Source: Conexivisphaerales archaeon
Lineage (GTDB): Archaea; Thermoproteota; Nitrososphaeria; Conexivisphaerales; DTJL01
Reading direction: 5' to 3'
Length of the DNA: 64,000 bases
Assembly: GCA_049509455.1 (NCBI GenBank)
Contig: JBEKZX010000002.1
Span: 2,764 to 66,763 of the forward strand
Of this stretch, positions 1 to 54,856 are shown piece by piece. The position numbers and the translations under genes were made by a program. The notes below the pieces were generated by a model, which was given only the letters and a program-made list of their open reading frames with translations, searched no databases and was not told the origin of the DNA. The first letter of the stretch is position 1. Every line of letters begins with the position of its first letter.

Positions 1-1187
1 TTCCCCTTTGGCTCATCTTCCTGATGGGAGGCGTCCTCGTCATGCTCGCGGGCCTCGTCTCGCCGGCTCAGGCTCAGTCGGCGGTGGACCTCCGGGTCAT
101 CGCCTTCCTGTTCAGCATGTTCGCGATAACGGCGGGGCTGCAGATATCGGGCGACCTGGACCGCTTCACCCGGTGGATCGTGGGCCACGCCCACAGGCCC
201 GGGGAGCTGGTCCTGTTCGTCTCGGTGGGGTTCGGCCTGGCGTCGTCCGTGCTGATGAACGATACGCTGGCGGTGATGGGGACGCCCATCCTGATAGCCA
301 CCGCCAGGAGCCTGGGAATGAAGGCGAAGCCGCTGCTCCTCACGCTGGCGTTCGCCGTGACCATAGGGAGCGCCCTGACACCCATAGGGAACCCCCAGAA
401 CATGCTGATAGCCGTCGAAAGCGGGATGCCTCAGCCCTTCCTATACTACGTCTATTACCTCCTCCCGTCCACGCTCATCAACATCGGCATCCTCTCGGGC
501 TTCGTCTACCTCGTCTTCCGCAAGGACCTGAAAGCCATGAAGGGGGCTCCCCCGGGCGACGAGCCTCCCTGCGACAGGCGGCTTTCTCTGCTCAGCCGCG
601 CGGCCCTGGCCCTGGCGGTGGGCGGGATGGTCGCCGTCAACGTCCTTTCCCTGGTCGGCCTGAGCTACGACATAGGCATAAGCGAGGTCGCCCTGGCGGC
701 CGCCGCCTTCCTCCTGCTGGCTTCGAAGCGCAGGAGTGAGATCCTGGCGAAGGTCGACTGGGGCGTGCTGGTCATGTTCGCCGGCCTCTTCGTGTTCACC
801 AGGGGGATCTACAACGGCGGCCTCGTCGACTTGATCAAGCCCATCTTCGGATCGTTCACGGGGCTGGAGCTCCTCCTGTTCATAGTGGTCTCCAGCGTGG
901 CCATCAGCCAGATAGTGAGCAACGTCCCCCTGGTGACCCTCCTCCTTCCCCTCTACGCGCAGATCATCCCGGCCACGTCCATCGCCCTGTGGGCGGCCTT
1001 CGCCGGCTCCAGCACCCTGGCGGGGAACGTCACCCTCCTGGGGGCCGCCAGCAACCTGATAATCGTCGAACAGGCCGAGAAGGAGGGGGAGCAGATCGGC
1101 TTCGGCGAATTCCTCAAGCTCGGGATACCCCTGTCGCTGGCCTGCCTGGCCGTCCTGATACTGACCTTCATCCCCTACGCCAAGTAG
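1..1187 (+). CDS. ArsB/NhaD-superfamily (YbiR-like) anion permease, probably 5'-truncated by the window edge
   Basis: 387-aa multi-TM ORF (24..1187) with permease-type motif TIGSALTPIGNPQNMLIA. The frame stays open upstream of the ATG to nt 3. Confidence 0.6.
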   Translation, partial: PLWLIFLMGGVLVMLAGLVSPAQAQSAVDLRVIAFLFSMFAITAGLQISGDLDRFTRWIVGHAHRPGELVLFVSVGFGLASSVLMNDTLAVMGTPILIATARSLGMKAKPLLLTLAFAVTIGSALTPIGNPQNMLIAVESGMPQPFLYYVYYLLPSTLINIGILSGFVYLVFRKDLKAMKGAPPGDEPPCDRRLSLLSRAALALAVGGMVAVNVLSLVGLSYDIGISEVALAAAAFLLLASKRRSEILAKVDWGVLVMFAGLFVFTRGIYNGGLVDLIKPIFGSFTGLELLLFIVVSSVAISQIVSNVPLVTLLLPLYAQIIPATSIALWAAFAGSSTLAGNVTLLGAASNLIIVEQAEKEGEQIGFGEFLKLGIPLSLACLAVLILTFIPYAK

Positions 1188-1319
1188 GCCGTGCTGCGGC
1201 GTGGACAGCTTTCTTTGACCGCCCTCGACGGCCCTGGGGCAGGCGATGGCGGCCCCCCTTGTACCATGGACGCCATTGCTCCGAAGCCCTCATAAGCTCA
1301 GCCGACTTTACATCATCCC

Positions 1320-2123
1320 ATGCCACTGGTATCAGCTGCCATACTCCCCCACGGCGGGGCCGCCATACCGGGCTTCAAGGAAGGTAAGGCCGACTTCTCG
1401 GAGGTCCGAAGAGGCATGAAGGAAGCTGTCGGCATGGTCATGAGCAGGGAGCCGCAGACGGTGGTGATCGCTTCGCCCCACAACATGAGGGTTGAGAATA
1501 ACATGGCCATCGTGACGGCGGAGAACTACGCCGGAAAGTTGGAGGAGGGAAGCAGGAAGGTGACGGTCGCCAGGAAGTGCGATGTCGGGCTCGCCAAGTC
1601 CATCTATGCCATCGCCACGAAGAGGAGGATGCCCGTGGTGGCGGTCAACTTTGGGACGAGCTCCGGTCCCGAATCGAAGATGCCGTTAGACTGGGGGACG
1701 ATGGTCCCCTTATGGTTCTTCCCCAGGAGGGTGAAGGTTGTGGTGGTCACTCCTTCGAGGGAGATTCCCTGGAAGGATTTGATGAAGATGGGCGAATGCA
1801 TAGGTCAGGCCTCTAGGCTGACGCCGACCAGGGTCTCTTTCATCGCCAGCGCCGACCAAGCCCACGCCCACTCGAAGTCCGGCCCCTACGGCTACGACGA
1901 AGCCGCCGACGAATATGATTCAAGGATCGTCAAACTCGTCAAGAGGGATAGGCTCGGTTCTTTGATGCGCTTCGAGCCAGCCCTCATTGAAAGGGCTAAA
2001 CCCGATGGCTTCTGGCAGATGCTCATCCTAATGGGGGCGCTCAAGGGGAAGGGCCTGAAGCCGTCCTGTTATAGCTACTCGTGCCCCACCTACTATGGAA
2101 TGCTTTCAGCCGCCTACGTCTGA
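1320..2123 (+). CDS. LigB-family (class III extradiol dioxygenase-like) protein
   Basis: 267 aa. Motifs are ILPHGG near the N-terminus, ASPHN, PLDWGTMVPLWFF (DHG..PL-like) and IASADQAHAH, which matches the PF02900-type pattern from memory. Confidence 0.5.
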   Translation: MPLVSAAILPHGGAAIPGFKEGKADFSEVRRGMKEAVGMVMSREPQTVVIASPHNMRVENNMAIVTAENYAGKLEEGSRKVTVARKCDVGLAKSIYAIATKRRMPVVAVNFGTSSGPESKMPLDWGTMVPLWFFPRRVKVVVVTPSREIPWKDLMKMGECIGQASRLTPTRVSFIASADQAHAHSKSGPYGYDEAADEYDSRIVKLVKRDRLGSLMRFEPALIERAKPDGFWQMLILMGALKGKGLKPSCYSYSCPTYYGMLSAAYV

Positions 2124-2268
2124 GCGCTGAATGCGTAACGCTCCGTGGCGGCCGACGGCAAGGTCATCCTGAAGAACGGAAAGCTCATCTAGTCGTTTAG
2201 ACTCGCTCCGATTGCGCACTCACGATAAACTTAATTACTAATCTCCGAAGTGATTGATTCAAGTTAAT

Positions 2269-2359
2269 GGCCGCCATCGTATAGTGGTAGTATCGAGGCC
2301 TGTGGTCGCTCTGCGGCAGAAAGCCTTGGGCAGGGGTTCGATTCCCCTTGGCGGCCCCA
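2269..2359 (+). tRNA. tRNA-His(GUG) with encoded G-1, one canonical 37/38 intron (~16 nt) and encoded CCA
   Basis: Hand fold: G-1 + GCCGCCA / UGGCGGC acceptor, GUAU/GUAU D stem, anticodon stem GAGGC/GCCUU with loop CUGUGG|intron|A, and T arm AGGGG-UUCGAUU-CCCCU. C73 is followed by CCA. Confidence 0.8.
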
Positions 2360-2411
2360 CCAAAGCTCCCGCATCCAACTTTAAATCGAGGAAGCCCTCC
2401 TTTTTCGGCGC

Positions 2412-3197
2412 TTGAGAGGGAAAGTGGACCTCAACGCCGACATGGGCGAGTCTTACGGCGCGTTGAAGGTGGGCTCGGACGAGGAGCTGGTCAGGATGGT
2501 TTCGTCGGCCAGCCTGGCCTGCGGCTTCCATGGGGGAGACCCTCTCACCATCGTAAGGGCCATAGAGATGTGCCGCACCAACGGCGTCGATGTCGGCGCC
2601 CATCCCAGCTTCCCCGACCGAGAAGGGTTCGGCAGGAAGGAGATGGAGATGCCCGAGAAGGAGCTAGAGGCTTCGATCCTCTACCAGGTGTCGGCGTTGA
2701 AAGGGGTGTCCGAGTCCCTCGGGGTGAGGCTGCAGCACGTCAAGCCCCACGGCGCCCTCTACAACATGGCCTGGAACAGGGAGGACTACGCGAGAGCCAT
2801 AGTGGAGGCTGTGAGCTCCATCTCGAGAGACCTGATCCTAGTGGTCCCCCCGAATTCGGTGGTCGAAAGAATGGCGCGGTCCGGAGGGCTCGTGGTCGCG
2901 AAGGAGGGGTTCCCCGAGAGGGGCTACCTCGATGACGGAAGGCTGGCGCCCAGGGGGACGGAGGGCGCCCTCATAACCGACCCCAAGGCCGCCGCCGAAC
3001 GAGCCGCCTCGATGGCTACGCAGGGTAGGGTCCTTTCCACGACGGGCAGGGAGGTCGAGATGGAGGTGGACACGCTCTGCGTGCACAGCGACACCCCGGG
3101 CGCCCCGGCCATCGCCAGGGAGATCCGGCGGAGGCTGAAGGAGGAGGGGGTGGAGGTCCTATCCCTGCGCTCACTCCTTGGGGGGCGCCGGCGATGA
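2412..3197 (+). CDS. pxpA: 5-oxoprolinase subunit A (LamB/YcsF family)
   Basis: 261 aa with a TTG start. N-terminal VDLNADMGESYG and ACGFHGGDP are hallmark LamB/YcsF motifs. The stop overlaps the next gene (ATGA at 3194-3197). Confidence 0.85.
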   Translation: MRGKVDLNADMGESYGALKVGSDEELVRMVSSASLACGFHGGDPLTIVRAIEMCRTNGVDVGAHPSFPDREGFGRKEMEMPEKELEASILYQVSALKGVSESLGVRLQHVKPHGALYNMAWNREDYARAIVEAVSSISRDLILVVPPNSVVERMARSGGLVVAKEGFPERGYLDDGRLAPRGTEGALITDPKAAAERAASMATQGRVLSTTGREVEMEVDTLCVHSDTPGAPAIAREIRRRLKEEGVEVLSLRSLLGGRRR

Positions 3198-4843
3198 TCT
3201 ACGACAGGCCCCGCTTCTCCGTGCTGGCGGGAGAGGTCCTGCACATCGAAGTCGGAGACGAGATAAGCCTCCCCTGCAGCGCCAAGGTGCGTAACCTGTC
3301 CGCGGCGCTTTCAGCGTTGGAGGGCGTGAGCGAAGTGACGCCCGCCTACGGGAGCCTGGCGGCCAGGGTCGACACGATGTCCACCAAGATGGCATCGGTC
3401 ATCAGGGCGGCCGAGAGGGCTTGGGCTCGGCGGACCGCCGGCGAGAGCGAGGGGAAGCTGGTCAAGGTCCCCGTCTGTTATGAAGGGGCGTTCGCCCCGG
3501 ACCTGGATTGGGTGGCCCAGAAGGCCGGGCTCAAGACGGAGGAGGTCGTGGCGTTGCACTCCTCCAAGGAGTACACCTGCATGATGATGGGCTTCTCGCC
3601 AGGGTTCGTCTATCTCGACGAAGTGGATCCCAGGATAAGGGCGGATAGGCTGGAGTCGCCTAGGACCAAGGTGCCGGCGGGGTCGGTGGGGGTGGCAGGA
3701 GCCCAGACCGGCATCTACGGCCTGGAGACGCCGGGCGGCTGGCGGCTCGTCGGGAGGACGCCGCTGACTATGTTCAACCCGCGGGCCTCGCCTCCGACGC
3801 CCATCGCCCCCGGTGATCGCGTGAAGTTCGAGCCGGTATCGTCCGATGAATTCAAGTTCATAAGGAAGGCTTCCCCGCCGTGGGCCCCTCCAGCCGCAGG
3901 CATCCCCGCCCTCGAAGTCAGGCAGCCTGGCCTGTTCGCGACGCTGCAGGACATGGGGAGGCCCTCCTTCAGGCATCTGGGCGTCCCGTGTTCGGGCGGG
4001 CTCGACCTAGTCTCTCAGCTGCAGTCGAACTACGTAGTCGGCAATCCGGGGCGGTCCCCGGTGATCGAAGTGATGGGGGGGTTCTTCGGGATCAAGGCGC
4101 TGGTGGACGTCGTCGTGGCCGTCACAGGGCCTGACTGCGAGCTGACGGTGAGCGGGGAGAAGGCCGAGACCTACTCCCCCCTTCTGCTCGGCGAGGGAGT
4201 TGAGCTGTCGATAGGGAGGACGGCGGGCCTCCTGAATTACGTCGCCGTGGCCGGAGAGCTTGTCGCGGACAACGTCATGGGAAGCTGTTCGACGTATTCC
4301 AGGGGCGGGTTCGGGGGTTATTCCGGGAGGTCGTTCAAAGCCAACGACGTCCTGAGCGTCGAGGGCCTGTCCGACCATGTCCTCATGCGCAGCGTCCCGC
4401 TCGAAAGAAGGACGGAGTTCACAGATGCCAAGCCCGTCAAGGCGGTGAGGAGCACCCTTCACGACGGCGGACCCGCCATGGGAGATTCAATTTTTGACCA
4501 GGAGTTCACCGTGAGCGAATCCTCCGACAGGACCGGGTATCGTTTGAAGCGTGCCGGAAGGGCTCCCGGTGCCACCGGTCAGGTGCTGACGTATCCCACG
4601 TTTCCTGGCTACGTTCAGATCCCACCCGACGGCTCCCCCATCGTCCTGCAGCAGGATTGCCCGACCACCGGCGGATATCAGCTGGCGGCAGCCATGATGC
4701 CCTCGGAGATGGGGAGGTTCTCGCAGTTGAAGCCAGGTTCGAAGGTGCGATTCGAAGAGGTCGACCAAGAGGCCGCGGCGAAGCTCTCAATCGGATTCCG
4801 GAAGGCCCTTCAGGGATACGCCTTCAGAGGCCCGGGGCTCTGA
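3194..4843 (+). CDS. Fused 5-oxoprolinase subunits B and C (KipI/KipA, allophanate-hydrolase subunit 1+2 domains)
   Basis: 549 aa. The N half is PxpB-like (MMGFSPGFVYL, GSVGVAGAQTGIY). The C half is PxpC-like (ALEVRQPGLFATLQDMGR, TGGYQ). It is translationally coupled to pxpA. Confidence 0.8.
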   Translation: MIYDRPRFSVLAGEVLHIEVGDEISLPCSAKVRNLSAALSALEGVSEVTPAYGSLAARVDTMSTKMASVIRAAERAWARRTAGESEGKLVKVPVCYEGAFAPDLDWVAQKAGLKTEEVVALHSSKEYTCMMMGFSPGFVYLDEVDPRIRADRLESPRTKVPAGSVGVAGAQTGIYGLETPGGWRLVGRTPLTMFNPRASPPTPIAPGDRVKFEPVSSDEFKFIRKASPPWAPPAAGIPALEVRQPGLFATLQDMGRPSFRHLGVPCSGGLDLVSQLQSNYVVGNPGRSPVIEVMGGFFGIKALVDVVVAVTGPDCELTVSGEKAETYSPLLLGEGVELSIGRTAGLLNYVAVAGELVADNVMGSCSTYSRGGFGGYSGRSFKANDVLSVEGLSDHVLMRSVPLERRTEFTDAKPVKAVRSTLHDGGPAMGDSIFDQEFTVSESSDRTGYRLKRAGRAPGATGQVLTYPTFPGYVQIPPDGSPIVLQQDCPTTGGYQLAAAMMPSEMGRFSQLKPGSKVRFEEVDQEAAAKLSIGFRKALQGYAFRGPGL

Positions 4844-4925
4844 TGGGCTGAGCGCTCAGAGTTGTCCCATTGGAGCGGGCCAAGCGCCGTGAGACGGGCC
4901 CCTCGACCGGCATGCTTTTAGGGAG

Positions 4926-5645
4926 TTGAAAGGGCGTCCCATGGCGAGCTTGTCAGCCGAGAGCCTCCCATCGCCGGAGACGCTTGCCTCCATGATTCAT
5001 AACACACTGGTTAATCCTGAGGCCTCTTGGAAGGAGCTTCAGGAGTTCGTCCTGAAGTCGGCTGACTGCGGCTTCTGGGCGGTCGTGGTGCAGGGTCGCT
5101 GGGCCAGAGAAGCCAAGGAGCTCGTCAAAGGGTCGGACGTCCGCATGTCGGTCGGCGTGGGGTTCCCGATGGGTGAAGGTTCCATGGAATCCAAGAAGGC
5201 AGAAATTGAGCAGGCCCTCGCGGCTGGCGCAGACCTCTTTGATTTTGTGCCGAACATGAGTTATCTGAAGTCGGGCATGTATGACAGGTTCGGCATGGAG
5301 ATGGCCGAGATAGTGAAGGCCGCCGAGGGGAGGCCCGTGAGCGCCGCGCTCGAGTACCCCCTGCTGAACCTCGACGAGAAGGTCAGGGCCGCTATGCTGG
5401 CACAGGAAGCCGGCGTTATGATAGTGGGGAACTCAAGTATCTGGGGGAGGGCCGAACCCGCCATGGTGGGCGATATAATGCTCCTCCGAAGCATAACGAG
5501 CAGCAGGACGAAGGTGAAAGCGTCGGGAGGGGTCCATGACCTCGACGCCGCGCTCAGATTGATCGGCGCGGGGGCGGACTTCGTCGGGACCGGCTCAGGC
5601 GTATCGATAATTGACGAACTAAGACGGAGGACCGCAGGGAGATGA
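4926..5645 (+). CDS. deoC: Deoxyribose-phosphate aldolase (DeoC) family protein
   Basis: 239 aa. Motifs are IHNTLVNPEAS, VGVGFPMGEG and VKASGGV...GADFVGTGSG, a DeoC class I aldolase pattern. The start may be the ATG at 4941 rather than the TTG at 4926. Confidence 0.65.
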   Translation: MKGRPMASLSAESLPSPETLASMIHNTLVNPEASWKELQEFVLKSADCGFWAVVVQGRWAREAKELVKGSDVRMSVGVGFPMGEGSMESKKAEIEQALAAGADLFDFVPNMSYLKSGMYDRFGMEMAEIVKAAEGRPVSAALEYPLLNLDEKVRAAMLAQEAGVMIVGNSSIWGRAEPAMVGDIMLLRSITSSRTKVKASGGVHDLDAALRLIGAGADFVGTGSGVSIIDELRRRTAGR

Positions 5646-5815
5646 CCAAGATGGTGGCCATGGGGGGTCGCAACGGAGGGCTCTTCGGATGGGAGCTGGA
5701 CGAATCCACGATGAATGACGCTCTGGAATGACCGCTTCGTGTGCGGCCTCCCCCGCGGGAGCGCCGCTACAAATCTTCCGTAGAATAAATATCGTGGTAG
5801 CGCGAGGAGGTCCTT

Positions 5816-6136
5816 GTGCAGTACTTCGATGCCGTCCAGGTCGGGCAGAGGAGGAGCGACGACGCGGAGAAGCTCCTGGCCAAATACACTCAGTTCGCGA
5901 GGGCCTCCATATTCCTGAAGGATAAGAAGGGAAGCTTCGAGCCCGTCGGCGAAGAGAACCTCTATGCCGTGGTCGAAATAAACCCTGGCACCGTCATGGT
6001 GGCGCTCGTGGACGGGGAGGGGAACGCGAAGGCCATGTCGTCCTACATCGGGAAGATTAGGTCGCAGCAGATCATCAAGCAGATCGAGCTCGACGGTATC
6101 AAGAAGTTCGAAGGGAAGGTCAACCTCCCCGTCTGA
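5816..6136 (+). CDS. Hypothetical small protein (possibly Roadblock/LC7-like)
   Basis: 106-aa ORF with a GTG start and protein-like composition. AT-rich aataaata lies ~25 nt upstream. The 302-aa antisense ORF 5261..6169 overlaps deoC and is taken as a shadow. Confidence 0.35.
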   Translation: MQYFDAVQVGQRRSDDAEKLLAKYTQFARASIFLKDKKGSFEPVGEENLYAVVEINPGTVMVALVDGEGNAKAMSSYIGKIRSQQIIKQIELDGIKKFEGKVNLPV

Positions 6137-6149
6137 GCAGAGTCTCGGC

Positions 6150-6389
6150 CTAGCGCTGCAGGAAGGCAACGTAGGCGCCGTAGCCGGTCCTGTCCACGGC
6201 TTCCCTGATCTCCTCTACTCTGACCTTCGAAGGGTCGTAGTCGACGAACACCTTGTTCAGCATCACAGCTACCCTGACGTCCGAGACGCCGTCCAGCTTC
6301 TTCGTCTGCTTCTCGATGGCCATGGCGCAGGTGGCACAGCTGATCTCCCTGACGAGGAAGGCCGCCCTGGACCGTTTGCCGTGCGTCAG
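6150..6389 (-). CDS. HMA (CopZ-like) metal-binding domain with no ATG/GTG/TTG start, probably a frameshifted C-terminal metal-binding domain of copA
   Basis: Hand translation of the minus strand gives ...RSRAAFLVREISCATCAMAIEKQTKKLDGVSDVRVAVMLNKVFVDYDPSKVRVEEIREAVDRTGYGAYVAFLQR*. The CxxC is at 6327-6338 and the stop at 6150-6152. The frame is -1 relative to copA and remains open back across the copA stop (6395-6397). Confidence 0.6.
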   Translation of the reverse strand: MTHGKRSRAAFLVREISCATCAMAIEKQTKKLDGVSDVRVAVMLNKVFVDYDPSKVRVEEIREAVDRTGYGAYVAFLQR

Positions 6390-6394
6390 GTGGC

Positions 6395-8479
6395 TTACGC
6401 CTCCTTCGCCTTGAACCTGAACAGCGTCAGCGAGTTGCTCACTACGGTCACCGAGCTCAACGCCATGGCCCCTGCGGCGAGGAAGGGGAGGGTGTTGTAG
6501 ATTCCTATGCCGAAGAGGGGCACCAGAGCGCCTGCGGCGATGGGTATGAGCAGGACGTTGTAGGCGAAGGCCCAGAACAGGTTCTGCCTGATCTTCGATA
6601 GGGTGCTCCTGCTCAGCCTGATGGCGGTCGCTACGTCACTCAGGTCCTCCCCGATCAGCACGATGCCGCCGGTCTCCTTGGCGATGTCGGTTCCGCTGCC
6701 GATGGCGATGCCCACGTCGGCCTTGGCCAGGGCCGGAGCGTCGTTGATGCCGTCCCCCACCATGGCCACCACGAGGCCCTCCTTCTGGAGCGATTCGATG
6801 GCCTCCTCCTTCTGCTGGGGGAGGACATCGGCGACGTAACGGTCGATGCCCGTCGACTTCGCAATGGCCGCGGCCACCCTGGCGTTGTCACCGGTGACCA
6901 TTATCACGCTTACGTTGAGCTTCTTCAAGGCGCTGACGGCGTTCGCGGCTGACGGCTTGAGCGTGTCGGCCACGCCGATCAAGCCGACGATCCTGCCGTC
7001 AACCGACAAGATCATCACCGTCTTTCCCTGCCGTTCCAGCCCATCAATCTTCGCATCTACGGCGGGAAGCCCTTCGTGATTGGCGAAGTTCTTCCTGTTG
7101 CCCAGAAAGACGTTCTTTCCGTCGACTTCGGCCCTGACGCCGCTTCCGGTCACCGCTTCGAAACCCTTCGTTTCGAGGAGCTGCAACGCCCTTGACGACG
7201 ACTCGGCCACTATAGCCCTGGCCAGGGGGTGCTCTGAGGCCTTCTCGACCGAGCCGGCGATCCTCGCTATGGTGTCGGCGTCGAGGTTCGCTGTCGGCAC
7301 AACGTCGGTGACAGATGGCCTGCCGACGGTGAGGGTCCCCGTCTTGTCGAAGGCCACGGCGTTGACCTTGGCCGCGCGCTCAAGGTACTCCCCACCCTTG
7401 ATCAGTATGCCGTTCTCGGCACCTTTGCTCGTCCCCACCAGCAGCGCCGCGGGCGTCGCTATTCCCAGGGCGCAGGGGCAGGCGATGACGACGACGGAGA
7501 CGAATATCAGGACGGCGAAGTTCGGCGCCACATGCCCAAAGAGTAGCCAAGCCACCCCGGCGATCACTGCGACAGAGACGACCATGGGAACGAAGTAGGA
7601 GGCGATCCTGTCGGCCAGGCGCTGGATGGGGGCCCTGCCGACCTGGGCTTCTTCGACCAGCCTGACGATCTGGGAGAGGGTCGTATCCTGGCCGACCTTA
7701 TCGGCCCTGACCTTGAGGAGCCCGGTCATGTTGAGGGTGGCGCCGATGACCTGGTCACCTTCCGCCTTCTCCGCGGGGATGCTCTCCCCCGTCACAGCCG
7801 ATTCGTCCACGGTCGACGGGCCTTGGATGACGACTCCGTCCACCGGGACCTTTTCGCCGGGCTTCACGAGGAGGATGTCGCCAACCTCCACATGTTCTAC
7901 GGGGACCTCCTCCTCCACGCCACCCTTCAGCCTGCGGGCCATCGTCGGCTGGAGGTCCATCAGCTTCCTGACGGCGTCGGAGGCGCGGGCCTTGGTGACG
8001 TGCTCGAGGTAGTTCCCGGCTAGGATCAGCGTTATGATGACGGCTGAAGTGTCGAAGTAGACGCTCGTCGTCGGGGCCAGCTTGGGGAACAGGGTCACCG
8101 CGTAGGAGTATGCCCACGCCGCGCTGGTTCCCAGGGCTATCAGCACGTCCATGTTCCCCATCCTGTTCCTGATGCTATCGTAGGTCCCCCTGTAGAACCG
8201 CCAACCCACGATGAACTGTACCGGCGTGTCCAGGATCAAGAGGATATAATTAGACGGCCGGGGAGGGAACAGGGCCAGATATGTAACGAGCAGGATGGGC
8301 ACGGTGAGGACCCCCGACGCGACGAGAGAGTACTTCAGGATCTTGAGGGCCCGCTCCGGAGCTACGAATTGCTGCAGACATGTCTCGCTACAGAAGTAGT
8401 AGGTGGTCCCCCTTACTGTAGCCTTGAGCTCGGCCGTCGTCTCGTCCACGAACATGCCGCACACGGGATCTTTTGCCAA
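6395..8479 (-). CDS. copA: Copper-translocating P1B-type ATPase with N-terminal TRASH/YHS-type domain
   Basis: 694 aa. Motifs are N-terminal CGMFVD...YYFCSETC, a CPC transmembrane motif ([11 protein letters not shown]), DKTGTLT and GDGINDAP. Confidence 0.9.
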
Positions 8480-8540
8480 AGAGTGAAGTGCACAACGGAT
8501 TGGGAGCTTAAAACGGTTTCAACAGATGCCATCGACATGG

Positions 8541-8993
8541 CTACTTTCGACGTTCGGAGGGGAGCCCTAGGACCAGCCTGACCGAGGATTCGATCTCATC
8601 AGCGACCTCCTCGTAGCTCACCTCCCCCTTGGAGGGGTCGTCTAAGTCTTGGGGGCTGTTCTTGGCGTATTCGCTCAGCGTGAACACCCTGCCCAAAAGG
8701 AAGGGGTGCTTGGAGAGTATCCTCTCCTTCTGCGACCTGGTCATGGTCAACACCATGTCCTTCGGACCTATGTCGGGTCGGAAGACCTTGGACCTGTGCG
8801 AAGTGAGGTCGACCCCCCTAGCCTTCATCGTCTCAATGGTCTCCTCCGTCGCCGGCATCCCTGCGAGGGCATCGAGGCCAGAGGAGTCCACCTTAACCTT
8901 GGAGATGTTGTTGTCGTGTAAGAGCTTCCGAGTGATGCCTTCCGCCATGGGGCTCCTGCAGGCGTTGGCCGAGCAGACGAACAGTATCTTCAT
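8541..8993 (-). CDS. Low-molecular-weight protein-tyrosine phosphatase / ArsC-type reductase family
   Basis: 150 aa. The N-terminal MKILFVCSANACRSPMAEG carries the CX5R(S/T) P-loop. Confidence 0.8.
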   Translation of the reverse strand: MKILFVCSANACRSPMAEGITRKLLHDNNISKVKVDSSGLDALAGMPATEETIETMKARGVDLTSHRSKVFRPDIGPKDMVLTMTRSQKERILSKHPFLLGRVFTLSEYAKNSPQDLDDPSKGEVSYEEVADEIESSVRLVLGLPSERRK

Positions 8994-9053
8994 GAATCTC
9001 CAAGGTGAGCGCGACCGGCAATATAGGGATGCCGCTATCCTATTCGAAGGGTC

Positions 9054-9947
9054 TCAATCGCTCCTGCTGATTAGGATTATCCCGGCGAAAAGGATGGCCC
9101 CGCCGACGATCTGAACCGATGTGATGGGCTCTCCGAGAAGGACGTGGGCGTAGAGAGTCCCGAAGAGAGAGCCGGTAGAGAATACCAAGAGGCTCCTGAC
9201 CGCCCCGATCCTGCTGAGCGCAAGGTAGAGGAAGGCCGTGGTGAGGCCGACGGGGATTATCCCAATGAGCACAATGTAAGGAATCGTGGAGGCCTCAATC
9301 GAGATGTTCTGCCCTGAGACCAAGATGAACGCTAGGAGCGTGAGCCCGCCAACGAGATTCCTCCACTTTGCCATTACTATGGCGTCTACGTGTAGGCTCA
9401 GCTTTCGGACGAGGTTGTTTTCGATGCTCCAGGATAATGTCGCCCCGAGGATGAAGAGGCTGCCGGCGAGGTTACTCAGAAGGGACGTGGCATGCAGGTT
9501 GAGGTTTGTGGAGATGGCTACGATGCCTGCCACCACGAGCAGGCTGGCGAAGTACTGGCGGCGGCTGAGAGACTCTTTGAAGATCGCTATCGCTATGATT
9601 GAAGTGAACAGGAGCTCGCCGTTGGAGAGAAGGGCTGTGCTCACAGCAGACGTGAGCCTGAGGCCGCTGTAGAAGAGGATGGGCCCGATGATAGCTCCAC
9701 ACAGGGTGACCAGGGCGAAGAGCGGAAGGCTCCCGCGGTCAATCTTGGCTGTGGGCCTATAGGCAAACAACATTAGACCGCCGACTGTGGCGGCAGAAGA
9801 GGCTATGAGGATGGGACTGGCTGAGCCCAAGGCTAACTTGCCCAGCGCGGAGGCCGAGCCATAGCCTAGGGCCGCCAGAAAGGCGAAGATGTATCCCTGG
9901 AGTCGTCTATTATGTTGTTCGAGCTGCAATCCTTCGTTTGTAACCAA
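9054..9947 (-). CDS. EamA/DMT-family transporter
   Basis: 297 aa with about 10 hydrophobic segments arranged as two EamA-like halves. Confidence 0.65.
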   Translation of the reverse strand: MVTNEGLQLEQHNRRLQGYIFAFLAALGYGSASALGKLALGSASPILIASSAATVGGLMLFAYRPTAKIDRGSLPLFALVTLCGAIIGPILFYSGLRLTSAVSTALLSNGELLFTSIIAIAIFKESLSRRQYFASLLVVAGIVAISTNLNLHATSLLSNLAGSLFILGATLSWSIENNLVRKLSLHVDAIVMAKWRNLVGGLTLLAFILVSGQNISIEASTIPYIVLIGIIPVGLTTAFLYLALSRIGAVRSLLVFSTGSLFGTLYAHVLLGEPITSVQIVGGAILFAGIILISRSD

Positions 9948-26792: not shown

Positions 26793-26931
26793 GCCGGGAG
26801 GCCGGGATTCAAACTTCAAGCCCGACAGCTCAGCCTGGTTAGAGCGCCAGCCTCCTTCGAAGGGCGATACTCATAATCTGGAGGTGGACGCGAGCCACCA
26901 GAAGTCGAGGGTTCGAAACCCTCTCCCGGCA
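26793..26931 (+). tRNA. tRNA-Met/Ile2(CAU) with three inferred introns (true 5' end may be 26801)
   Basis: 139 nt. Features are acceptor GCCGGGA/UCCCGGC+A, D arm GCUC-AGCCUGGUUA-GAGC, anticodon loop CUCAUAA and T arm GAGGG-UUCGAAA-CCCUC. Extra blocks of about 18-26, 18 and 19 nt sit after position 8, in the anticodon stem and in the variable region. The heptamer GCCGGGA occurs twice in tandem (26793, 26801). Confidence 0.65.
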
Positions 26932-26933
26932 CC

Positions 26934-26938
26934 TTTTT
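26934..26938 (+). terminator. Oligo-T terminator after tRNA-Met
   Basis: TTTTT followed by cttt, 3 nt after the discriminator base. This is the archaeal poly-T termination signal. Confidence 0.4.
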
Positions 26939-41019: not shown

Positions 41020-41531
41020 GATAATGTGTGAACTAGGTTGTTAATCTTAATGAACTAACGTTGAGAGGAATTGTGAAGGTCCAGCCTAGTTTACTGGAGT
41101 TAGCAGGCACTATTCGCCCTTGTTGGGAGTAAGCGGCTGCACGGGTTCCAGTGGACGCACTGGGGTGGCGGTGGTCGGTTAACAAACTTAAAGGTGTAGA
41201 TTGGGTCCACTGGAAACAATGGGGTTCAAAGCTGGCTCCTTTTGGTTGCGATACAAGTGTATGTTAACAAATAGGCTACTATCTATGATTGTCGTTCAGG
41301 TTGATGAGGGGCACCCGTAGATCGCCAGTGGAGACCCCTTATAGAATCTGGAATATTGACTATTGGCGTCGAAGTAGTCTAGACTAGATTTAACTGTCTT
41401 ATCAGTCAACTAGTGTTAACATGATTGTATATATGCTTCTTGGGGCATCAAATAGCGGTATATTTTCCATCTTCCCGTTTATCATCTTTAACTTATATAT
41501 TTTCCAGTGGAAGTAATGGGGGGAGGGGCTC
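41020..41531. other. Chromosomal replication origin (oriC) with ORB boxes and an AT-rich unwinding element
   Basis: There are three same-orientation boxes: TTCCAGTGGA-N5-TGGGG at 41143-41165, GTCCACTGGA-N5-TGGGG at 41203-41224 and TTCCAGTGGA-N5-TGGGGGG at 41500-41524. One degenerate inverted box lies at 41314-41336. The AT-rich stretch 41340-41500 sits between the inverted and last boxes. The locus is directly upstream of orc1/cdc6. Confidence 0.8.
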
Positions 41532-42734
41532 TTGTCAAACCCATCAAGCGATCCATTAAATGACATATTCGATAGGGCGATTAACGGGGAAAGTCTCTTC
41601 CTAAACAGAAATGCCCTCAGGAACGAATTCATCCCTAACCAAATCCACTTCAGAGACGAACAGATCAAGAATGTGGGCCAAATATTATCCCCCGCTCTCA
41701 CTGGTCACAAACCTTCTAGTCTGTTAATTTACGGCAAAACCGGCACAGGGAAGACCGTAGTCGTAAGATATGTAATCAACCGCCTAGTCGAGAGAAGCAA
41801 AACAATGGACACAAACATCCGAACGGCCTATGTGAATACACGCGTAGCTTCAACCGAGTATCGAATTCTGTCTGAAGTTGCGATTGAGCTGGGAGTAGCT
41901 TTACCATTTACCGGACTGTCTCTCAGTGAAGCATTCAATAGAATAACTAGCAACATGAGAGAACACTCGCTCAAAACCATCTTCGTTCTTGACGAGATCG
42001 ATTTTCTGGTCAAATCGTCAGGCGACAACCTCCTTTACGAATTCACTAGAGCCAACGAAAATTTGACCAACAACGCTTTCATCGCGTTAGTGGGGATATC
42101 CAACGACCTCAAATTCAAAGAGACACTCGATCCGAGGGTCCTTAGCAGCCTAAACGAAGAAGAAATAGTGTTCTCTCCCTACTCAGTAGACGAACTAAGG
42201 GCCATCTTGCGCGAACGGATTGAGGTAGCTTTTGTCCCAGGGAAAGTAAGCGAAGCCGCAGTCAACCTGTGCGCAGGCATGGGGGCCGCAGAGCATGGAG
42301 ACGCGAGACGCGCCGTCGACCTCCTTCGAGTAGCTGGAGAGCTTGCTGAAAGAGAAGGCGCGCAAACGGTTGAGGACTCCCATGTAAGAGAAGCCTCGAA
42401 GAGCATCGAAAGAGACCGAGTGCTTGAAGCAATCCAGTCATTACCCATTCATGGCAAATTGACACTCCTAGCCGTCTCATCCTTCAAAGAAGCCGAGAAC
42501 ACAGGCCATATATACGCCAAATACATTGAGGTCACCAAACAACTTGGGCTCGAACCCTTGACGCAGAGAAGGGTAAGCGGCCTCCTAAGTGAACTTGATC
42601 TCTTGGGACTTGTTTCGGCTCCAGTCGTTAGCAAGGGCAGGATGGGCCGATCCAAGAAGGTCAGGCTGGAAATACCACAACAGGTCGTCGAAGCCTCTCT
42701 CAAGGACGATGAAACCGTCAAAACGCTTCTCTAG
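41532..42734 (+). CDS. cdc6: Orc1/Cdc6 replication initiator
   Basis: 400 aa with a TTG start. It has Walker A GKTGTGKT, Walker B LDEIDF and a C-terminal winged helix. Confidence 0.9.
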   Translation: MSNPSSDPLNDIFDRAINGESLFLNRNALRNEFIPNQIHFRDEQIKNVGQILSPALTGHKPSSLLIYGKTGTGKTVVVRYVINRLVERSKTMDTNIRTAYVNTRVASTEYRILSEVAIELGVALPFTGLSLSEAFNRITSNMREHSLKTIFVLDEIDFLVKSSGDNLLYEFTRANENLTNNAFIALVGISNDLKFKETLDPRVLSSLNEEEIVFSPYSVDELRAILRERIEVAFVPGKVSEAAVNLCAGMGAAEHGDARRAVDLLRVAGELAEREGAQTVEDSHVREASKSIERDRVLEAIQSLPIHGKLTLLAVSSFKEAENTGHIYAKYIEVTKQLGLEPLTQRRVSGLLSELDLLGLVSAPVVSKGRMGRSKKVRLEIPQQVVEASLKDDETVKTLL

Positions 42735-51143: not shown

Positions 51144-51210
51144 TGCCCCCCAGCTCCGGTCGAAATTCTTAAAAACTCCCACTGGGTCGTGGCTTCAAGA
51201 GCCCCGGAAG

Positions 51211-51323
51211 GCCCCGGTACCTCGTCAGTGCCCGAGGCTGGAAAGCATAGTGGTCGAATGTGCTTCCTTGGTAGACTCGATACAAAGAGGAAGAGACCGC
51301 GGGTTCAAATCCCGCCCGGGGCT
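51211..51323 (+). tRNA. tRNA-Thr(GGU) with two inferred introns (after position 8 and at 37/38)
   Basis: Acceptor GCCCCGG/CCGGGGC+U, D arm GCAU-AGUGGUCGA-AUGU, anticodon stem CUUCC/GGAAG with loop UUGGUA|~14 nt|A, and T arm GCGGG-UUCAAAU-CCCGC. The heptamer GCCCCGG is duplicated 3 nt upstream (51201). Confidence 0.65.
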
Positions 51324-51401
51324 CCTTTTCAGAGGCGTCTAGAGTATGGTCTGACGCATGTCGCCAATTCAGAATCGAACGCATCTATCCCCTCGTGTGA
51401 G

Positions 51402-52722: not shown

Positions 52723-53082
52723 ATGATGTCGAGACCTGCCGACGACGACGATTCGTACCATGCCAAGGCGTCGAAAATCGTCGATTCTGGCGGTGTCAAG
52801 CGACATATCTTCGAACCCAGCGGAACCGAAATCTGGACCGTCGTCGGAGCGGAAGGAGAGTATCTTGTATCCGATGACCCCCCATTGTGCACGTGTCCAG
52901 CCTTCTACTTCTCTCTGACGCGTGGCAAAAAGAGGAACTGCCATCACCTCATAGCCGTGGAACTGGCCAAGCAGGAGGACCATGTGGCGACGACGGTGGG
53001 ACGAGACGAGGAGATCCGCATATTCCTGAAGTTACTCTGCGAAGAGGCCAGCGAGGACGACAGCAGTCAGCTTAATGAATAA
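52723..53082 (+). CDS. SWIM zinc-finger protein
   Basis: 119 aa with CTCPAFYF...CHHLIAV, which is the CxCxnCxH SWIM signature. Confidence 0.65.
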   Translation: MMSRPADDDDSYHAKASKIVDSGGVKRHIFEPSGTEIWTVVGAEGEYLVSDDPPLCTCPAFYFSLTRGKKRNCHHLIAVELAKQEDHVATTVGRDEEIRIFLKLLCEEASEDDSSQLNE

Positions 53083-53247
53083 GTTCTTTCACTCAATGAC
53101 TGAGGCTGTGAGATGCATGTACCTCAAGGATTCTAGGTTCCAGAAGATGACCGACTTGGGTTTCGAGCCTCGCCTGGGTCACCATCTTGCTGAAGTGACC
53201 TCGGCCTGAGCCAGCCGTCGAAACGGTCACCGTTCAGGTCGCAATAA

Positions 53248-53442
53248 AGGACTGCTGGCTCTGGTTCCAAAACCATTATCGGTGAAGCTATCCTTCCTGC
53301 TTATCTAGACCATGTCTTCAGCCATTATAACGTCAGATGCCTCGAAGGCGTCAAAATCGCGCTTGGCGACCTACTTAACAGGAAGACCCTAGCCCTATTC
53401 ACAGGACACGACTGGTTATACGACAGGTTCTCGCAGGAATAG
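53248..53442 (+). pseudogene. Start-less protein-like ORF fragment (possible gene relic)
   Basis: Hand translation gives RTAGSGSKTIIGEAILPAYLDHVFSHYNVRCLEGVKIALGDLLNRKTLALFTGHDWLYDRFSQE*. It has no ATG/GTG/TTG start. The same frame stays open for 42 more codons after the TAG, up to the next TAG at 53569-53571. Confidence 0.3.
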
Positions 53443-54005
53443 GCCCCCTCAACCACTAGCTCCTACTTTTCGGGAACCTCCCAAGTCGTAGTAGGTTGTT
53501 TACGTCAGGTAGGTTTCGACGGCCCCGAAATACGCCAACGAAGTTATGCCGCATCCCCCGAAAAGGGTTAGCTCATGTTAGCTCATTTCCTGTCGTCGGC
53601 CCGTCGGCGGTAGGTCGGTGACGACAATTCTCCTTTCCGACCTAAGCCTGTTTCCTCTTCGTCAGTGTTAGGCCCACAGGCTCTATATTGGTCAACACGA
53701 ACCAAAAACACTAAACGGAACTAACCCCGCCACCGAGGGAACTAACCCTCCAACGGACCGCAAGAGCCACCAGAAGTCGAGGAAGGCTCGGGGGAGGGAG
53801 AGGAGGGAGGTCGGGAAGGCGCAAACCAATAAGGGAAGCAACGTAGACCACCGATGGGCAAAGTGCAGGTGCAATGGATTTACAACGGTTTCGAGGCGGA
53901 GATGACAGTACCGCAGTTGACAGAACCCCTCGGCCCTAGTCGGCTCCCCACCGTCGCCTTCTTGCCCTGCACCTTCCTTCTTCCCTCGCCTCCTACCGTC
54001 GCGGG

Positions 54006-54144
54006 TGGGAGGTTGTGAGAGGTTGTCTCCGTCGGCTGGGAGGTTGGTGGGAGGTTGGTGGGAGGTTCGCCTAGGGTTGGTGGGAGGTTCGCCTAGGGTT
54101 GGTGGGAGGTTCACTACCTCCTACTTCTGCGTCGGTGGGAGGTT
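54006..54144 (+). repeat. Iteron cluster A: 7 copies of TGGGAGGTT plus 1 variant, phased at multiples of ~11 bp
   Basis: Copies start at 54006, (54016 TGAGAGGTT), 54037, 54048, 54059, 54081, 54103 and 54136. The cluster includes the perfect 22-bp tandem GGTTGGTGGGAGGTTCGCCTAG at 54053-54074 and 54075-54096, plus a 16-nt third copy. Confidence 0.9.
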
Positions 54145-54213
54145 TGTCAAGAGATTCGGGTCTGATGTTCGTCGGCTAACGAGATAACGGGTAGAACAAA
54201 CGATACCCATTGC

Positions 54214-54274
54214 TGGGAGGTTAGTGGGAGGTTGCGGGAGGTTAATGGGAGGTTTTGGGAGGCATTGGGAGGCA
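54214..54274 (+). repeat. Iteron cluster B: 6 copies of (T/C)GGGAGG(TT/CA) at 10-11 bp spacing
   Basis: Copies start at 54214, 54225, 54235, 54246, 54256 and 54266. Confidence 0.9.
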
Positions 54275-54387
54275 TGAACCCCCCCGTTAAGGCTATCACT
54301 ATAGAAGACCCAAGCAGAAAACAGGCTCAAGTCGGAGAGGAGAATTCTATCCTCGGCCACCTCTCCGGCCCAGACCCTTCTCCGGAG

Positions 54388-54405
54388 ACCTCCCACTACC
54401 TCCCA
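54388..54405 (-). repeat. Two inverted iteron copies (ACCTCCCA x2, 10 bp apart)
   Basis: The copies lie at 54388-54395 and 54398-54405. A further full inverted copy, AACCTCCCA, lies at 53475-53483. Confidence 0.8.
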
Positions 54406-54471
54406 CCCCTCTTGACGGATGCGGTATAACACCAAAGACCACTTTCACGCGGTCTCCGGGGCTCGCACGAC

Positions 54472-54672
54472 ATGAGCATCCCAGACTTCTTCAACGAGTG
54501 CGTCGACTTCTACCAGATGAACCACGGCATGATTTCGGAGCTACGCTTCAAGAACGTGGCCATGGTCGACTACATTGACCTGCTGAAGGCGAAGATAACC
54601 TTGCTGGAGCAACGAATCGACACGCAGGACATGGCTACCCAAACGGTTTACGAGATGATGACGAATAGGTGA
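54472..54672 (+). CDS. Hypothetical 66-aa helical protein, the only intact ORF in the island
   Basis: ATG-initiated ORF with a coiled-coil-like segment (IDLLKAKITLLEQRIDTQD). No family was recognised. Confidence 0.3.
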   Translation: MSIPDFFNECVDFYQMNHGMISELRFKNVAMVDYIDLLKAKITLLEQRIDTQDMATQTVYEMMTNR

Positions 54673-54781
54673 ACACGTTAGCACCTCCTAGACCTTGCCT
54701 CAGGCTGACCGCCCACTCCCAAGGCATCCAGAACGGAGATCCTGAATCAGAATGGTGATATATTTTATGCTTAGAGTTAGG

Positions 54782-54856
54782 AGCCTCGGAGGGGCTTCGC
54801 TCCCCTGACCCACAGCTTACAAGGCTGTTGCTCTAACTAGGCTGAGCTACCGAGGC
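54782..54856 (-). tRNA. tRNA-Thr(UGU) with non-canonical D and T loops
   Basis: GCCUCGG-UA-GCUC-AGCCUAGUUA-GAGC-A-ACAGC-CUUGUAA-GCUGU-GGGUC-AGGGG-AGCGAAG-CCCCU-CCGAGGC-U. The stems are intact, but the T loop is AGCGAAG instead of UUCRAAU and the D loop lacks the GG pair. Confidence 0.6.

Follow-up and report, generated by a model that had tools for sequence, protein, structure and literature searches.

The parC site of plasmid R1 carries two clusters of five 11-bp repeats that are bound by ParR, and in type III toxin-antitoxin systems a tandem array of RNA repeats, each of ~36 nt, precedes the gene for the protein, an endoribonuclease of ~170 aa. To our knowledge, mobile elements are almost unknown in the non-ammonia-oxidising Nitrososphaeria. 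Of the integrated elements in Thaumarchaeota, 57% have a tRNA gene as their target, in nearly every case its 3′ part; the median att length is 17 bp and the smallest reported element is 2.6 kb (Krupovic et al. 2019, PMC6563490). The locus described here occupies positions 53083-54781 of a 64,000-nt stretch of DNA (the window) from a Conexivisphaerales archaeon (GCA_049509455.1, JBEKZX010000002.1). An earlier inspection of the letters of this DNA, which we refer to as the sequence-only reading, had taken the whole interval for the relic of an integrated element, and each item on its list of features was found again at its position. We favour a narrower version of that proposal, in which only the right-hand part would be what is left of an integrated mobile element, or a miniature of one, poor in genes but with its cis-acting repeat region kept. 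We hold this explanation tentatively, as quite plausible but somewhat short of probable.

Our analysis has shown that the interval 53083-54779 is a composite of two parts. From 53083 to ~53452 it is ancestral chromosome, made up of a micro-ORF and a pseudogene remnant, and from ~53453 to 54779 (~1.3 kb) it is a lineage-restricted block directly adjoining the 3′ end of tRNA-Thr(UGU). DNA homology to relatives is lost at 53318-53323 and is back at 54779/54780, the end of the tRNA, which is 100% identical in the sister lineage. Since this tRNA gene lies on the minus strand (Table 1), the island terminates at its 3′ end, with the block running to 54779 and the tRNA beginning at 54780, as had been proposed from the letters. 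The relatives L148 and L023 are so distant that neutral DNA would be unalignable anyway, which weighs against a mobile origin, and "lineage-specific" therefore rests mainly on the length of the block and on the loss of a gene. The interval is poor in reading frames, as the sequence-only reading had it, with no ORF of at least 60 aa in 53083-53691, and its GC content is 0.51-0.61 in 300-bp windows. An assembly artefact was ruled out by 12 other, independent contigs (JGI, ENA, Logan) that carry the same interval at 99.89-100% identity. The repeat arrays do break short-read assemblies of this species.

Table 1. Features of the locus, in window positions.
Feature	Positions	Strand	Remarks
Micro-ORF, 33 aa (VRCMYLKDSRFQKMTDLGFEPR...)	53108..53209	+	Conserved, ancestral, outside the inserted block
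Decayed 3′ remnant of a conserved 170-178-aa gene	53199..53328	-	Frameshift and in-frame stop
Left limit of the lineage-specific block	53421..53452	.	~30 nt common to L148 only; last match outside the species
Left arm, start of left module	53543..53660	+	Inverted pairs I1 and I2 in one register; arm alignment
GARCTAA repeat array	53697..53748	+	Complementary to the TTAGCTC arm repeats; 2 exact copies
19-nt exact copy of tRNA-Met gene	53764-53782 = 26892-26910	+	Intron end, variable loop and T-stem
Fast-evolving centre	53775..53995	.	Between purine and pyrimidine tracts
Array 1	54006..54144	+	Eight TGGGAGGTT-type copies, including the 22-bp unit x2.7
Array 2	54214..54275	+	Six TGGGAGG(TT/CA) copies; array of the right module
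Right arm, start of right module read on the minus strand	54312..54430	-	Arm alignment; L155 blastn
ORF66	54472..54672	+	Small protein, predicted to form one long helix
tRNA-Thr(UGU)	54780-54856	-	Bounds the block on the right with its 3′ end

The left ~370 bp, being ancestral chromosome, cannot be part of a relic, and in this respect the original proposal was too wide. Its micro-ORF was overlooked by the sequence-only reading. The core of the micro-ORF is near-invariant in nine sequences from the lineages sampled, and the substitutions are of the synonymous type (AGG/CGG, CAG/CAA, GAC/GAT). Its start codon is GTG or ATG with GAGG 3 nt upstream, and there is an alternative ATG at 53075. The feature next to it had been described as a start-less, protein-like ORF; it is present and probably represents what is left of the 3′ part of a conserved gene (the ORF178 family) that in relatives converges on the SWIM gene and takes up the room as far as the tRNA. 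ORF178 of L021 matches this remnant by tblastn (E 7e-8) in two pieces that lie in different frames, and the remnant was aligned with homologues from L021, L023, L024 and L025.

The junction with tRNA-Thr(UGU) has different contents in different relatives. A genome scan with prs yielded a single useful relative, L021, along with four that are distant. L023 represents the empty state, in which the ORF178-family gene stops 45 bp short of the tRNA, and L148 carries an unrelated 176 bp. L021 has a 3.4-kb insert between exact 17-bp direct repeats of the tRNA 3′ end, a repeat length equal to the median att length of the published elements (PMC6563490). tRNA-Thr(UGU) is an integration hot spot in the Conexivisphaerales, occurring across lineages as an empty site, as an att-flanked islet and, in our window, as what may be a stripped relic. 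No second copy of AGGAGCCTCGGAGGGGC was found in or near the island of the window with up to three mismatches allowed, in agreement with the earlier inspection, which had seen no clean att repeats by eye. The idea of an integrated-element relic is partly supported, in that the right ~1.3 kb is lineage-restricted and ends at a tRNA, but it lacks the support of an att pair or an integrase fragment. Reading frames of at least 35 aa contained no remnants of an integrase, Rep, Par or any other identifiable protein (Pfam, PHROG, NCBIfam). The comparison with viruses and plasmids, to which the sequence-only reading had pointed, gave no similarity between the block and phage records, plasmid records or IMG/VR contigs. 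IMG/VR was also scanned with the motif triple, two versions of core B, the ORF66 family, and the MCM and ORF317 of L107, and nothing related was retrieved, the only other yield being an unrelated three-copy site in L026. All of these absences count against the relic, as does the fact that it is apparently single-copy.

The block owes its distinctive character to its repeats. GGGAGGTT occurs 15 times in the 64-kb window compared with 3.0 expected (5-fold), a count that was reached in none of 100 shuffles. Twelve of the 15 copies are in the island, 11 of them on the plus strand at 54007-54254, so that the motif is concentrated within 1 kb. The two phased 9-bp arrays and the 22-bp tandem duplication noticed by eye are also seen by Tandem Repeats Finder (54037-54112 and 54214-54275). 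Array 1 has a period of 11, with a perfect 22-bp unit x2.7 at 54053-54112 and copies spaced at 11, 11, 11, 22 and 22 bp; array 2 has a period of 10-11 and spacings of 11, 10, 11, 10 and 10 bp. Both arrays therefore contain three or more direct repeats phased at approximately one helical turn. The motif is found in either orientation, and not all copies are in tandem, some standing alone; the one inverted copy in array 1 (54115-54123) can form alternative hairpins with its neighbours.

The block consists of two inverted copies of a ~250-bp module together with ORF66. Each module runs from core A (a conserved, TATA-like 14 nt) through two tandem 10-bp repeats, a hairpin with the conserved 31-nt core B (AATTCTCCTYTYCGACYTRAGCCTGTTTYCT) and a G-run to an array of 2-14 complementary repeats. 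The starts of the two modules form an imperfect inverted repeat of ~115 bp (53543-53660 versus 54312-54430), with both arms in one register, which had been overlooked in the sequence-only reading. The left arm holds core A (53543-53556), TTAGCTC x2 (53567-53586), the CGTCGG hairpin (53591-53626) and core B (53626-53656), and the right arm holds core A′ (54417-54430), two arm repeats (54387-54406) and core B′ (54316-54346). The short elements listed previously were all located, namely GTTAGCTCAT twice at 53567-53586, GGAACTAACCC twice at 53717 and 53738, a hairpin in which TGTCGTC (53591-53597) pairs with GACGACA (53620-53626), a purine tract at ~53775-53830 and a pyrimidine tract at ~53940-53995. 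In the sister lineage, the GARCTAA array has six copies with 10/21-bp spacing. The 19-nt copy of tRNA-Met sequence is exact, as had been claimed, with a chance expectation of ~1e-3 by our own arithmetic. Its source is an intron-containing tRNA-Met gene (~26793-26935, read by eye) that both ARAGORN and Rfam miss.

Comparison of strains and lineages has shown how the repeats change. Strains that are 99.9% identical differ only by a 22-bp indel, which is a copy-number polymorphism in array 1, a 20-bp indel in array 2 and three SNPs. In the sister lineage, whose prs is 97% identical, every array-1 copy reads TATCAGGTT and not TGGGAGGTT, the isolated and inverted copies included, and the repeats of L155, described below, are TGACAGGTT. 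The sister-lineage sequence (samples SRR22234381 and SRR22234383) has a gap at 54185-54316, a stretch that includes array 2. The central triplet thus changes in concert from lineage to lineage (T-GGG-AGGTT, T-ATC-AGGTT, T-GAC-AGGTT). Judged from the letters, the phasing at 10-11 bp, the presence of both orientations and this co-variation together form the pattern that would be expected of cis-acting binding sites. The fast-evolving centre is 80-88% identical to the sister lineage, compared with ~97% for the left part and the genes, and changes in the ORFs that cross it are mostly non-synonymous. Two other candidate roles for the repeats were rejected. A Shine-Dalgarno or anti-Shine-Dalgarno sponge (GGAGGT) was discarded because the sister lineage and L155 carry ATCAGGT and GACAGGT, respectively. 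Protein-coding repeats ('PPTNLP', minus-strand ORFs) were discarded because 11 bp is not divisible by 3 and no family was matched; in addition, identity is down to 53% in P0016, the ORF140 homologue from a lineage whose genes are 97% identical.

It could be argued that the block is nothing but intergenic DNA left by gene decay, with minisatellites produced by slippage, unequal exchange and inverted duplication and with neither function nor mobile origin. Copy number does vary among near-identical strains, the centre diverges by 12-40% compared with 7% at prs synonymous sites, and there is no family match of any kind. Further, metagenomes commonly contain unrelated minisatellites built of this motif; a scan for three phased copies there returned more than 120, mostly unrelated, and only one contig of this species. 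Neutral decay leaves unexplained, however, the cassette of L155 with its conserved cores and small gene, the isolated and inverted copies that carry the lineage's triplet, and ~900 bp of non-repeat sequence in place of a 400-bp gene segment. We regard it as rather unlikely. A lead towards the relic that we prefer comes by analogy from contig L107 (Ga0315282_10015022), a metagenome contig that carries an integrase, Prim-Pol and MCM. At its end lie 13 copies of the 11-bp repeat GTGGGAGGTTT. It resembles the island in the 9-bp core, the 11-bp phase and the GGGAGGCT variants, and its context is that of an archaeal-type mobile element. In contrast to the island, it has neither cores A and B nor an ORF66 homologue; its flanks show no similarity to the island and a search for att sites in it found none. 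The weight of L107 as evidence for a relic is reduced because it was found by searching for the motif, of which so many unrelated arrays exist.

The sequence-only reading had also supposed that the element lost its genes. This was not quite borne out, since the intact 66-aa ORF that it had itself listed persists and has an 85-aa homologue beside a homologous module on contig L155. L155 is an unrelated contig with different flanks, no tRNA and a GC content of 0.586. The two proteins are 34-38% identical (tblastn E 2.6e-14), and the homology continues in frame upstream of ORF66 to 54430. ORF66 is predicted to be a single acidic helix (pLDDT 94.6). L155 holds one module, comprising core A, two arm repeats, core B (28/31 identical), the G-run and 5-6 repeats, and its positions 426-556 match window positions 54408-54278 by blastn (76% identity, E 8e-22); array 2 is homologous to its AACCTGTCA array. 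Between the arms and in L155, conservation of cores A and B is 87-90% (87% for core B of the left arm versus L155), compared with ~50-64% identity in the flanks. A second, homologous cassette therefore exists elsewhere, and on sequence grounds the pair would represent a discrete, transferable unit. In the mobile reading it is a drawback that the flanks of L155 show no sign of a mobile element and that the block has no AT-rich unwinding region in 300-bp GC windows.

The conserved cores and the apparent pair covariation among four module copies could instead mean that the unit has a function of its own. Core A would then act as the promoter of a structured module RNA, in which the arm repeats pair with one array repeat and core B closes the hairpin, and this RNA would act with or regulate the helical protein, either as a leader or as an RNA-protein pair, an arrangement with some loose likeness to type III toxin-antitoxin loci. 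RNAalifold of the four module copies, two of which are near-identical, gave 35 pairs, nine with both sides changed. In the consensus, 97% of cells were paired compared with 85% in shuffles (0/500 reached this value) and 40-64% with slid partners; these controls overstate the support, since the same four sequences had served to build the structure. Both lineages retain the direct-inverted-direct hairpins at 54103-54144, with an altered sequence in the sister; several mismatches between arm and array repeats turn out to be G-U when read on the module-sense strand (our own reading); and in L155 the module and the gene are on the same strand, with the repeat array upstream of the gene. In the window, by contrast, the module nearest ORF66 is inverted relative to it, and the mismatches between the arms in core B favour the opposite strand. 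The minimum free energy structure over the whole interval is not conserved against the sister lineage (eight changes consistent, 11 pair-breaking, none compensatory), fold z-scores are only -2.5 and -1.7, and Rfam 15 matched only the tRNA, whether at the gathering score or at E up to 5. These results also argue against the long structured ncRNA that had been offered as an alternative, and a single RNA spanning the interval was rejected. ORF66 differs from the sister lineage by six non-synonymous changes and one synonymous change, and repeats of 9-11 nt with a 66-85-aa helix are unlike ToxI/ToxN. Taken together, a self-contained RNA-based unit is unlikely in our view, although it deserves some weight.

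The inverted arms raise the question of whether 53543-54430 is a MITE-like, non-autonomous transposon of 888 bp that arose by internal deletion, kept its terminal inverted repeats and subterminal transposase-binding repeats, and was inserted in older intergenic DNA. Its terminal 14-nt repeats, GTTATRCCGCATCC and GGATGCGGTATAAC, are perfect in the sister lineage, and the second inverted core of 31 nt and short repeats are present in both arms. The flanks CGCCAACGAA and CACCAAAGAC match at 7/10 positions and could be a decayed target duplication. However, a 7/10 match has a chance of ~1-2% by our own estimate, and the unit is single-copy in all available data: 9/9 contigs with the element's 54-aa ORF share one context, no further copy was found in the 64-kb window, and no transposase relative was found. 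L155 has one module beside a small gene, and a duplicated module therefore fits better than transposon ends. We consider a MITE improbable.

Least probable, and very unlikely, is that the block is a resident protein-loading array, such as a secondary origin, a segregation site or a nucleation site for a nucleoid protein. The two helically phased clusters and their fixed position across strains would fit such a role, and a chromosomal array had been suggested as an alternative by the sequence-only reading. It is unlikely because an oriC with ORB boxes lies at 41.1-41.5 kb, 12 kb from the island. ORB cores occur only at 41147, 41206 and 41503 (41147-41511), with cdc6 adjoining at 41532-42734, the GC-skew maximum is likewise at 41.1-41.5 kb, and the skew turns at 40-42 kb. 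The island contains no ORB boxes and no AT-rich stretch, the array is missing from the same site in relatives, and conservation of the motif does not extend even to the sister lineage.

Returning to the relic of an integrated element, we predict the following course of events. The 3′ end of tRNA-Thr(UGU), a recombination hot spot of the clade, would have taken up a mobile element, whose distal att site would then have been lost together with most of the neighbouring gene. The cis-acting region that survived would be the two inverted ~250-bp modules, with ORF66 completing the cassette. The T-NNN-AGGTT 9-bp repeats, phased at 10-11 bp, would most likely be bound, at multiple sites, by a single sequence-specific factor, as iterons and centromeres are. 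Slippage would alter the repeat number between strains, and because every copy would have to fit a single factor, or the other copies, the central triplet would change in concert. A further possibility, which we rate as unlikely though deserving some weight, is that the module and small-protein cassette is a previously undescribed small archaeal unit that moves between contexts, with the triplet as a specificity code that is read by a co-evolving factor or by arm/array pairing as RNA or ssDNA. If the cassette is autonomous, it would represent a small archaeal system that is new, either of the RNA/protein or of the iteron type. Whatever its nature, the triplet was reset in all copies between lineages ~3% apart, which provides a natural experiment on a switch in a recognition site and the specificity of its reader, and cores A and B with the T-NNN-AGGTT arrays provide a searchable signature for the parent element.

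How does this locus compare with known systems? It differs from MITEs in that the 888-bp unit is single-copy, its target duplication is doubtful and its L155 homologue is one-armed; it is similar to them in having terminal and subterminal inverted repeats without a transposase. In contrast to type III toxin-antitoxin loci, its repeats are of 9-11 nt, its protein is a helix of 66-85 aa and the proximal array of the window is inverted, whereas in L155 a short-repeat array does precede a small protein gene, the two sharing one strand. Unlike iterons and parC, the block is not accompanied by a rep or par gene and lacks an AT-rich unwinding element. The only neighbour of the arrays is ORF66, which has no family match, and no gene for an initiator or centromere-binding protein was found beside them; ORF66 is a predicted acidic helix rather than a ribbon-helix-helix or winged-helix binder. 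Similar to those systems, however, the block has two helically phased clusters of direct repeats together with inverted copies, and its repeats differ between close relatives, as incompatibility determinants do. Compared with the tRNA-integrated elements of Thaumarchaeota (PMC6563490), the block is small (1.3 kb versus a minimum of 2.6 kb) and without an integrase, an att pair or replication and structural genes. Like them, it places foreign-looking DNA at a tRNA 3′ end, at a site whose content varies between relatives and which in L021 is marked by a 17-bp att-type repeat.

Our comparisons have shown that DNA homology between the island and all relatives ends at 53318-53323 and resumes exactly at the end of tRNA-Thr, at a divergence where neutral DNA would fail to align anyway. 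A 30-mer at 53421-53452 was common to one relative only, L148. At the tRNA-Thr junction, the relative L023 is empty, L148 carries 176 unrelated bp, the window carries 1.33 kb, and the relative L021 (CAYYVT010000187.1, 6383-9830) carries 3.4 kb flanked on both sides by 17 bp that repeat the tRNA 3′ end exactly. The L021 insert encodes TusA/SnoaL, DsrE and a double-HTH Lrp-like regulator; no integrase was found in it, and it resembles a small cargo islet bounded by att sites. According to Krupovic et al. (PMC6563490), tRNA genes are the target of 57% of the integrated elements of Thaumarchaeota, almost always in their 3′ part, and the att sites have a median length of 17 bp. Because neutral DNA is unalignable at this divergence and the window holds no second att copy, the case for insertion rests on length and on a lost gene. 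Judging from these alignments, the right two thirds of the island is lineage-restricted and lies at an integration hot spot.

The lost gene is visible in the relatives, which were reached via prs (L021) or via SWIM homologues (L023, L024, L025, L147, L148, L154). In L021, L023, L024 and L025, a 170-178-aa gene that matches no known family is convergent with the SWIM gene. Its protein bears the C-terminal motif EPEPAVxYCGPNGDRYDGWLRPR, and in L023 only 45 bp separate the gene from the 3′ end of tRNA-Thr. A stretch of ~70 nt between the SWIM gene and the remnant in the window is almost invariant, though DNA identity between the lineages' genes is no more than 65-78%. This stretch reads as the micro-ORF, which is near-invariant across nine sequences from the sampled lineages; GTG and ATG alternate as its start, GAGG lies 3 nt upstream, and its changes are of synonymous type. 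No family in Pfam or NCBIfam matched it, and it is a small conserved gene outside any relic. The sequence-only reading, which took the whole island for a mobile relic, is supported in part: it fits the right two thirds, and it does not fit the left third, which is ancestral.

Features of the island, its surroundings and related loci (window coordinates unless a contig is named)
Feature	Position	Strand	Description
tRNA-Met(CAT)	26793-26935	+	intron-containing; read by eye; source of 19-nt copy
Chromosomal replication origin	41146-41528		three ORB boxes (TTCCAGTGGA...GGGG) just upstream of orc1/cdc6
orc1/cdc6	41532-42734		beside ORB boxes
Second intron-containing tRNA gene	~51208-51325	+	Rfam partial match 51244-51315, 33.8 bits
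SWIM-finger gene	52723-53082	+	left neighbour of island
Micro-ORF	53108-53209	+	33 aa (27-33 aa across lineages); directly after SWIM gene
Remnant of 170-178-aa gene	53199-53328	-	pseudogene; last ~43 codons; frameshift and stop
Intact 170-178-aa genes	L021 5793-6329; L025 2542-3054
Inverted-repeat arms	53543-53660; 54312-54430		imperfect, ~115 bp
Array 1	54037-54112		11-bp phase; perfect 22-bp unit x2.7
Array 2	54214-54275		10-11-bp phase
ORF66	54472-54672	+	66 aa
tRNA-Thr(UGU)	54780-54856	-	right neighbour of island; prs next beyond
L155 cassette		one strand	core A-like site; two arm repeats TGGCAGGTC, TGGGAGGTG; core B 28/31 identical; same spacer with G7 run; five to six AACCTGTCA repeats; 85-aa ORF66 homologue

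Every feature listed for the island by eye was present in the sequence, including the paired copies of GTTAGCTCAT and of GGAACTAACCC, the CGTCGG hairpin and the purine and pyrimidine tracts. The motif GGGAGGTT occurs 15 times in the window (3.0 expected), 12 of these inside the island. A 19-nt copy of part of the tRNA-Met gene was also borne out (53764-53782 matches 26892-26910). Neither ARAGORN nor Rfam detects this tRNA-Met gene, and the two intron-containing tRNA genes of the window are poorly handled by tools. The possibility of an assembly artefact was dismissed, since the complete interval recurs, at 99.89-100% identity, in 12 other contigs from assemblies of JGI, ENA and Logan. Nothing separates them except one 22-bp unit of array 1, 20 bp of array 2 and three SNPs. 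The interval is thus genuine, and its arrays vary in length within the species, which would be due to slippage. Logan short-read contigs of the species and its sister lineage (L008, L015, L016, L017, L153) terminate in or beside the arrays, so the repeats fragment assemblies and hide the sister's array 2, which falls in an assembly gap.

The sister lineage was covered on the right side by L016 and L017 and on the left by L153. Its prs is 97% identical (synonymous difference 7%, dN/dS 0.22); identity is ~97% over 53083-53700 and falls to 80-88% centrally. All copies of array 1 read TATCAGGTT, not TGGGAGGTT, and this replacement extends to the inverted copy and to the isolated copy that precedes TTGTCAAGAG. 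In both lineages the trio at 54103-54144 (direct, inverted, direct) can fold into either of two hairpins of 9-10 bp, the sequence differing from one lineage to the other. The sister's GARCTAA array has six copies, and its right arm retains ACCTCC-type copies. The repeats may be multiple sites for one sequence-specific factor; consistent with this role, successive copies are spaced by one turn of the helix, and the triplet switches in concert in isolated as well as inverted copies. Neutral junk with minisatellites would accommodate the slippage, and we consider it unlikely beside this concerted switching.

The two arms of the block (~1.3 kb, from ~53453 to the tRNA) keep two cores well and in one register, core A of 14 nt and core B of 31 nt. 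Each arm places two tandem repeats of 10 bp between its cores (TTAGCTC-type left, GGGAGGT-type right), and interior to the arm comes an array of the repeat complementary to these (GARCTAA left, 53697-53748; GGGAGGT arrays right). Since arms and inner arrays share this layout, the block consists of one module in two inverted copies, with ORF66 after them. Inverted copies would suit a MITE-like transposon derivative; the element is single-copy in the available data, and this origin seems very unlikely.

With word-indexed searches, ORF66 turned up in no lineage but the species and its sister. An exhaustive HMMER search recovered P0017 (E 4.8e-8), encoded on contig L155 (GC 0.586), whose flanks are unrelated and without tRNA. 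L155 matched the window by blastn (76% identity, E 8e-22), and its 85-aa protein matched 54430-54666 by tblastn (34% identity, E 2.6e-14). Because L155 carries a homologous cassette amid unrelated flanks, module and small gene form a discrete unit found in two contexts. The repeats follow the pattern T-NNN-AGGTT, where NNN is GGG, ATC, or GAC/GGC. ORF66 probably represents a genuine gene; one long helix is predicted for it, and its non-synonymous to synonymous ratio against the sister is 6:1, from seven changes only.

A self-contained RNA/protein cassette would agree with this unit, and we regard it as somewhat unlikely. RNAalifold predicted 35 pairs in four module copies, nine changed on both sides; 97% of cells were paired, versus 85% in shuffles (0/500 reached 97%) and 40-64% with partners slid, the structure having been built from the same four sequences, two of them near-identical. 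Module-level RNA structure is a lead, not a result. One long structured RNA across the interval, also suggested earlier, is not supported: fold z-scores were -2.5 and -1.7, and sister changes break 11 predicted pairs and keep 8. No family in Rfam (up to E 5), or in Pfam, PHROG or NCBIfam across all frames, matched the interval, and no phage record, plasmid record or IMG/VR contig was similar to it.

The window is chromosomal DNA of an uncultured archaeon, with an rRNA operon; a protein identical to its SWIM protein is assigned by NCBI to a Conexivisphaerales MAG. Its chromosomal replication origin is a textbook one, 12 kb from the interval, and the window's cumulative GC-skew maximum and GC minimum coincide with the ORB-box site. 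The interval was rejected as a chromosomal origin, the ORB-box origin sitting beside orc1/cdc6. A resident loading array would account for phased sites, and with the block lineage-restricted we hold it to be highly improbable.

Taken together, our tentative reading is that a mobile element integrated at tRNA-Thr and that the block is its gene-poor relic or a miniature form of it, in which the cis-acting repeats were retained. Two features stand out as unusual: the triplet switches in concert, and a conserved module is common to the window and the unrelated contig L155.

The GGGAGGTT motif alone is not diagnostic, because its tandem arrays, with a period of 10-11 bp, are common in metagenome contigs that are unrelated (L027-L146, GC 0.39-0.73; more than 120 among the matches listed). 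The viral contig L026 (IMGVR_UViG_3300003690_000657, 7740-7834) has three intergenic copies of GGGAGGTT, phased at 11 bp, next to a hairpin of 17 bp; this site is probably an operator or iteron that is unrelated. The metagenome contig L107 (Ga0315282_10015022, 1-9316), found by motif search and with flanks unrelated to the island, is an archaeal-type element encoding a tyrosine integrase, Prim-Pol, MCM helicase and a winged-helix-like ORF. At one of its ends an GTGGGAGGTTT repeat of 11 bp is present 13 times, and a second array, of 10 bp, occupies 7944-7999. Arrays of this kind are thus found in archaeal-type elements.
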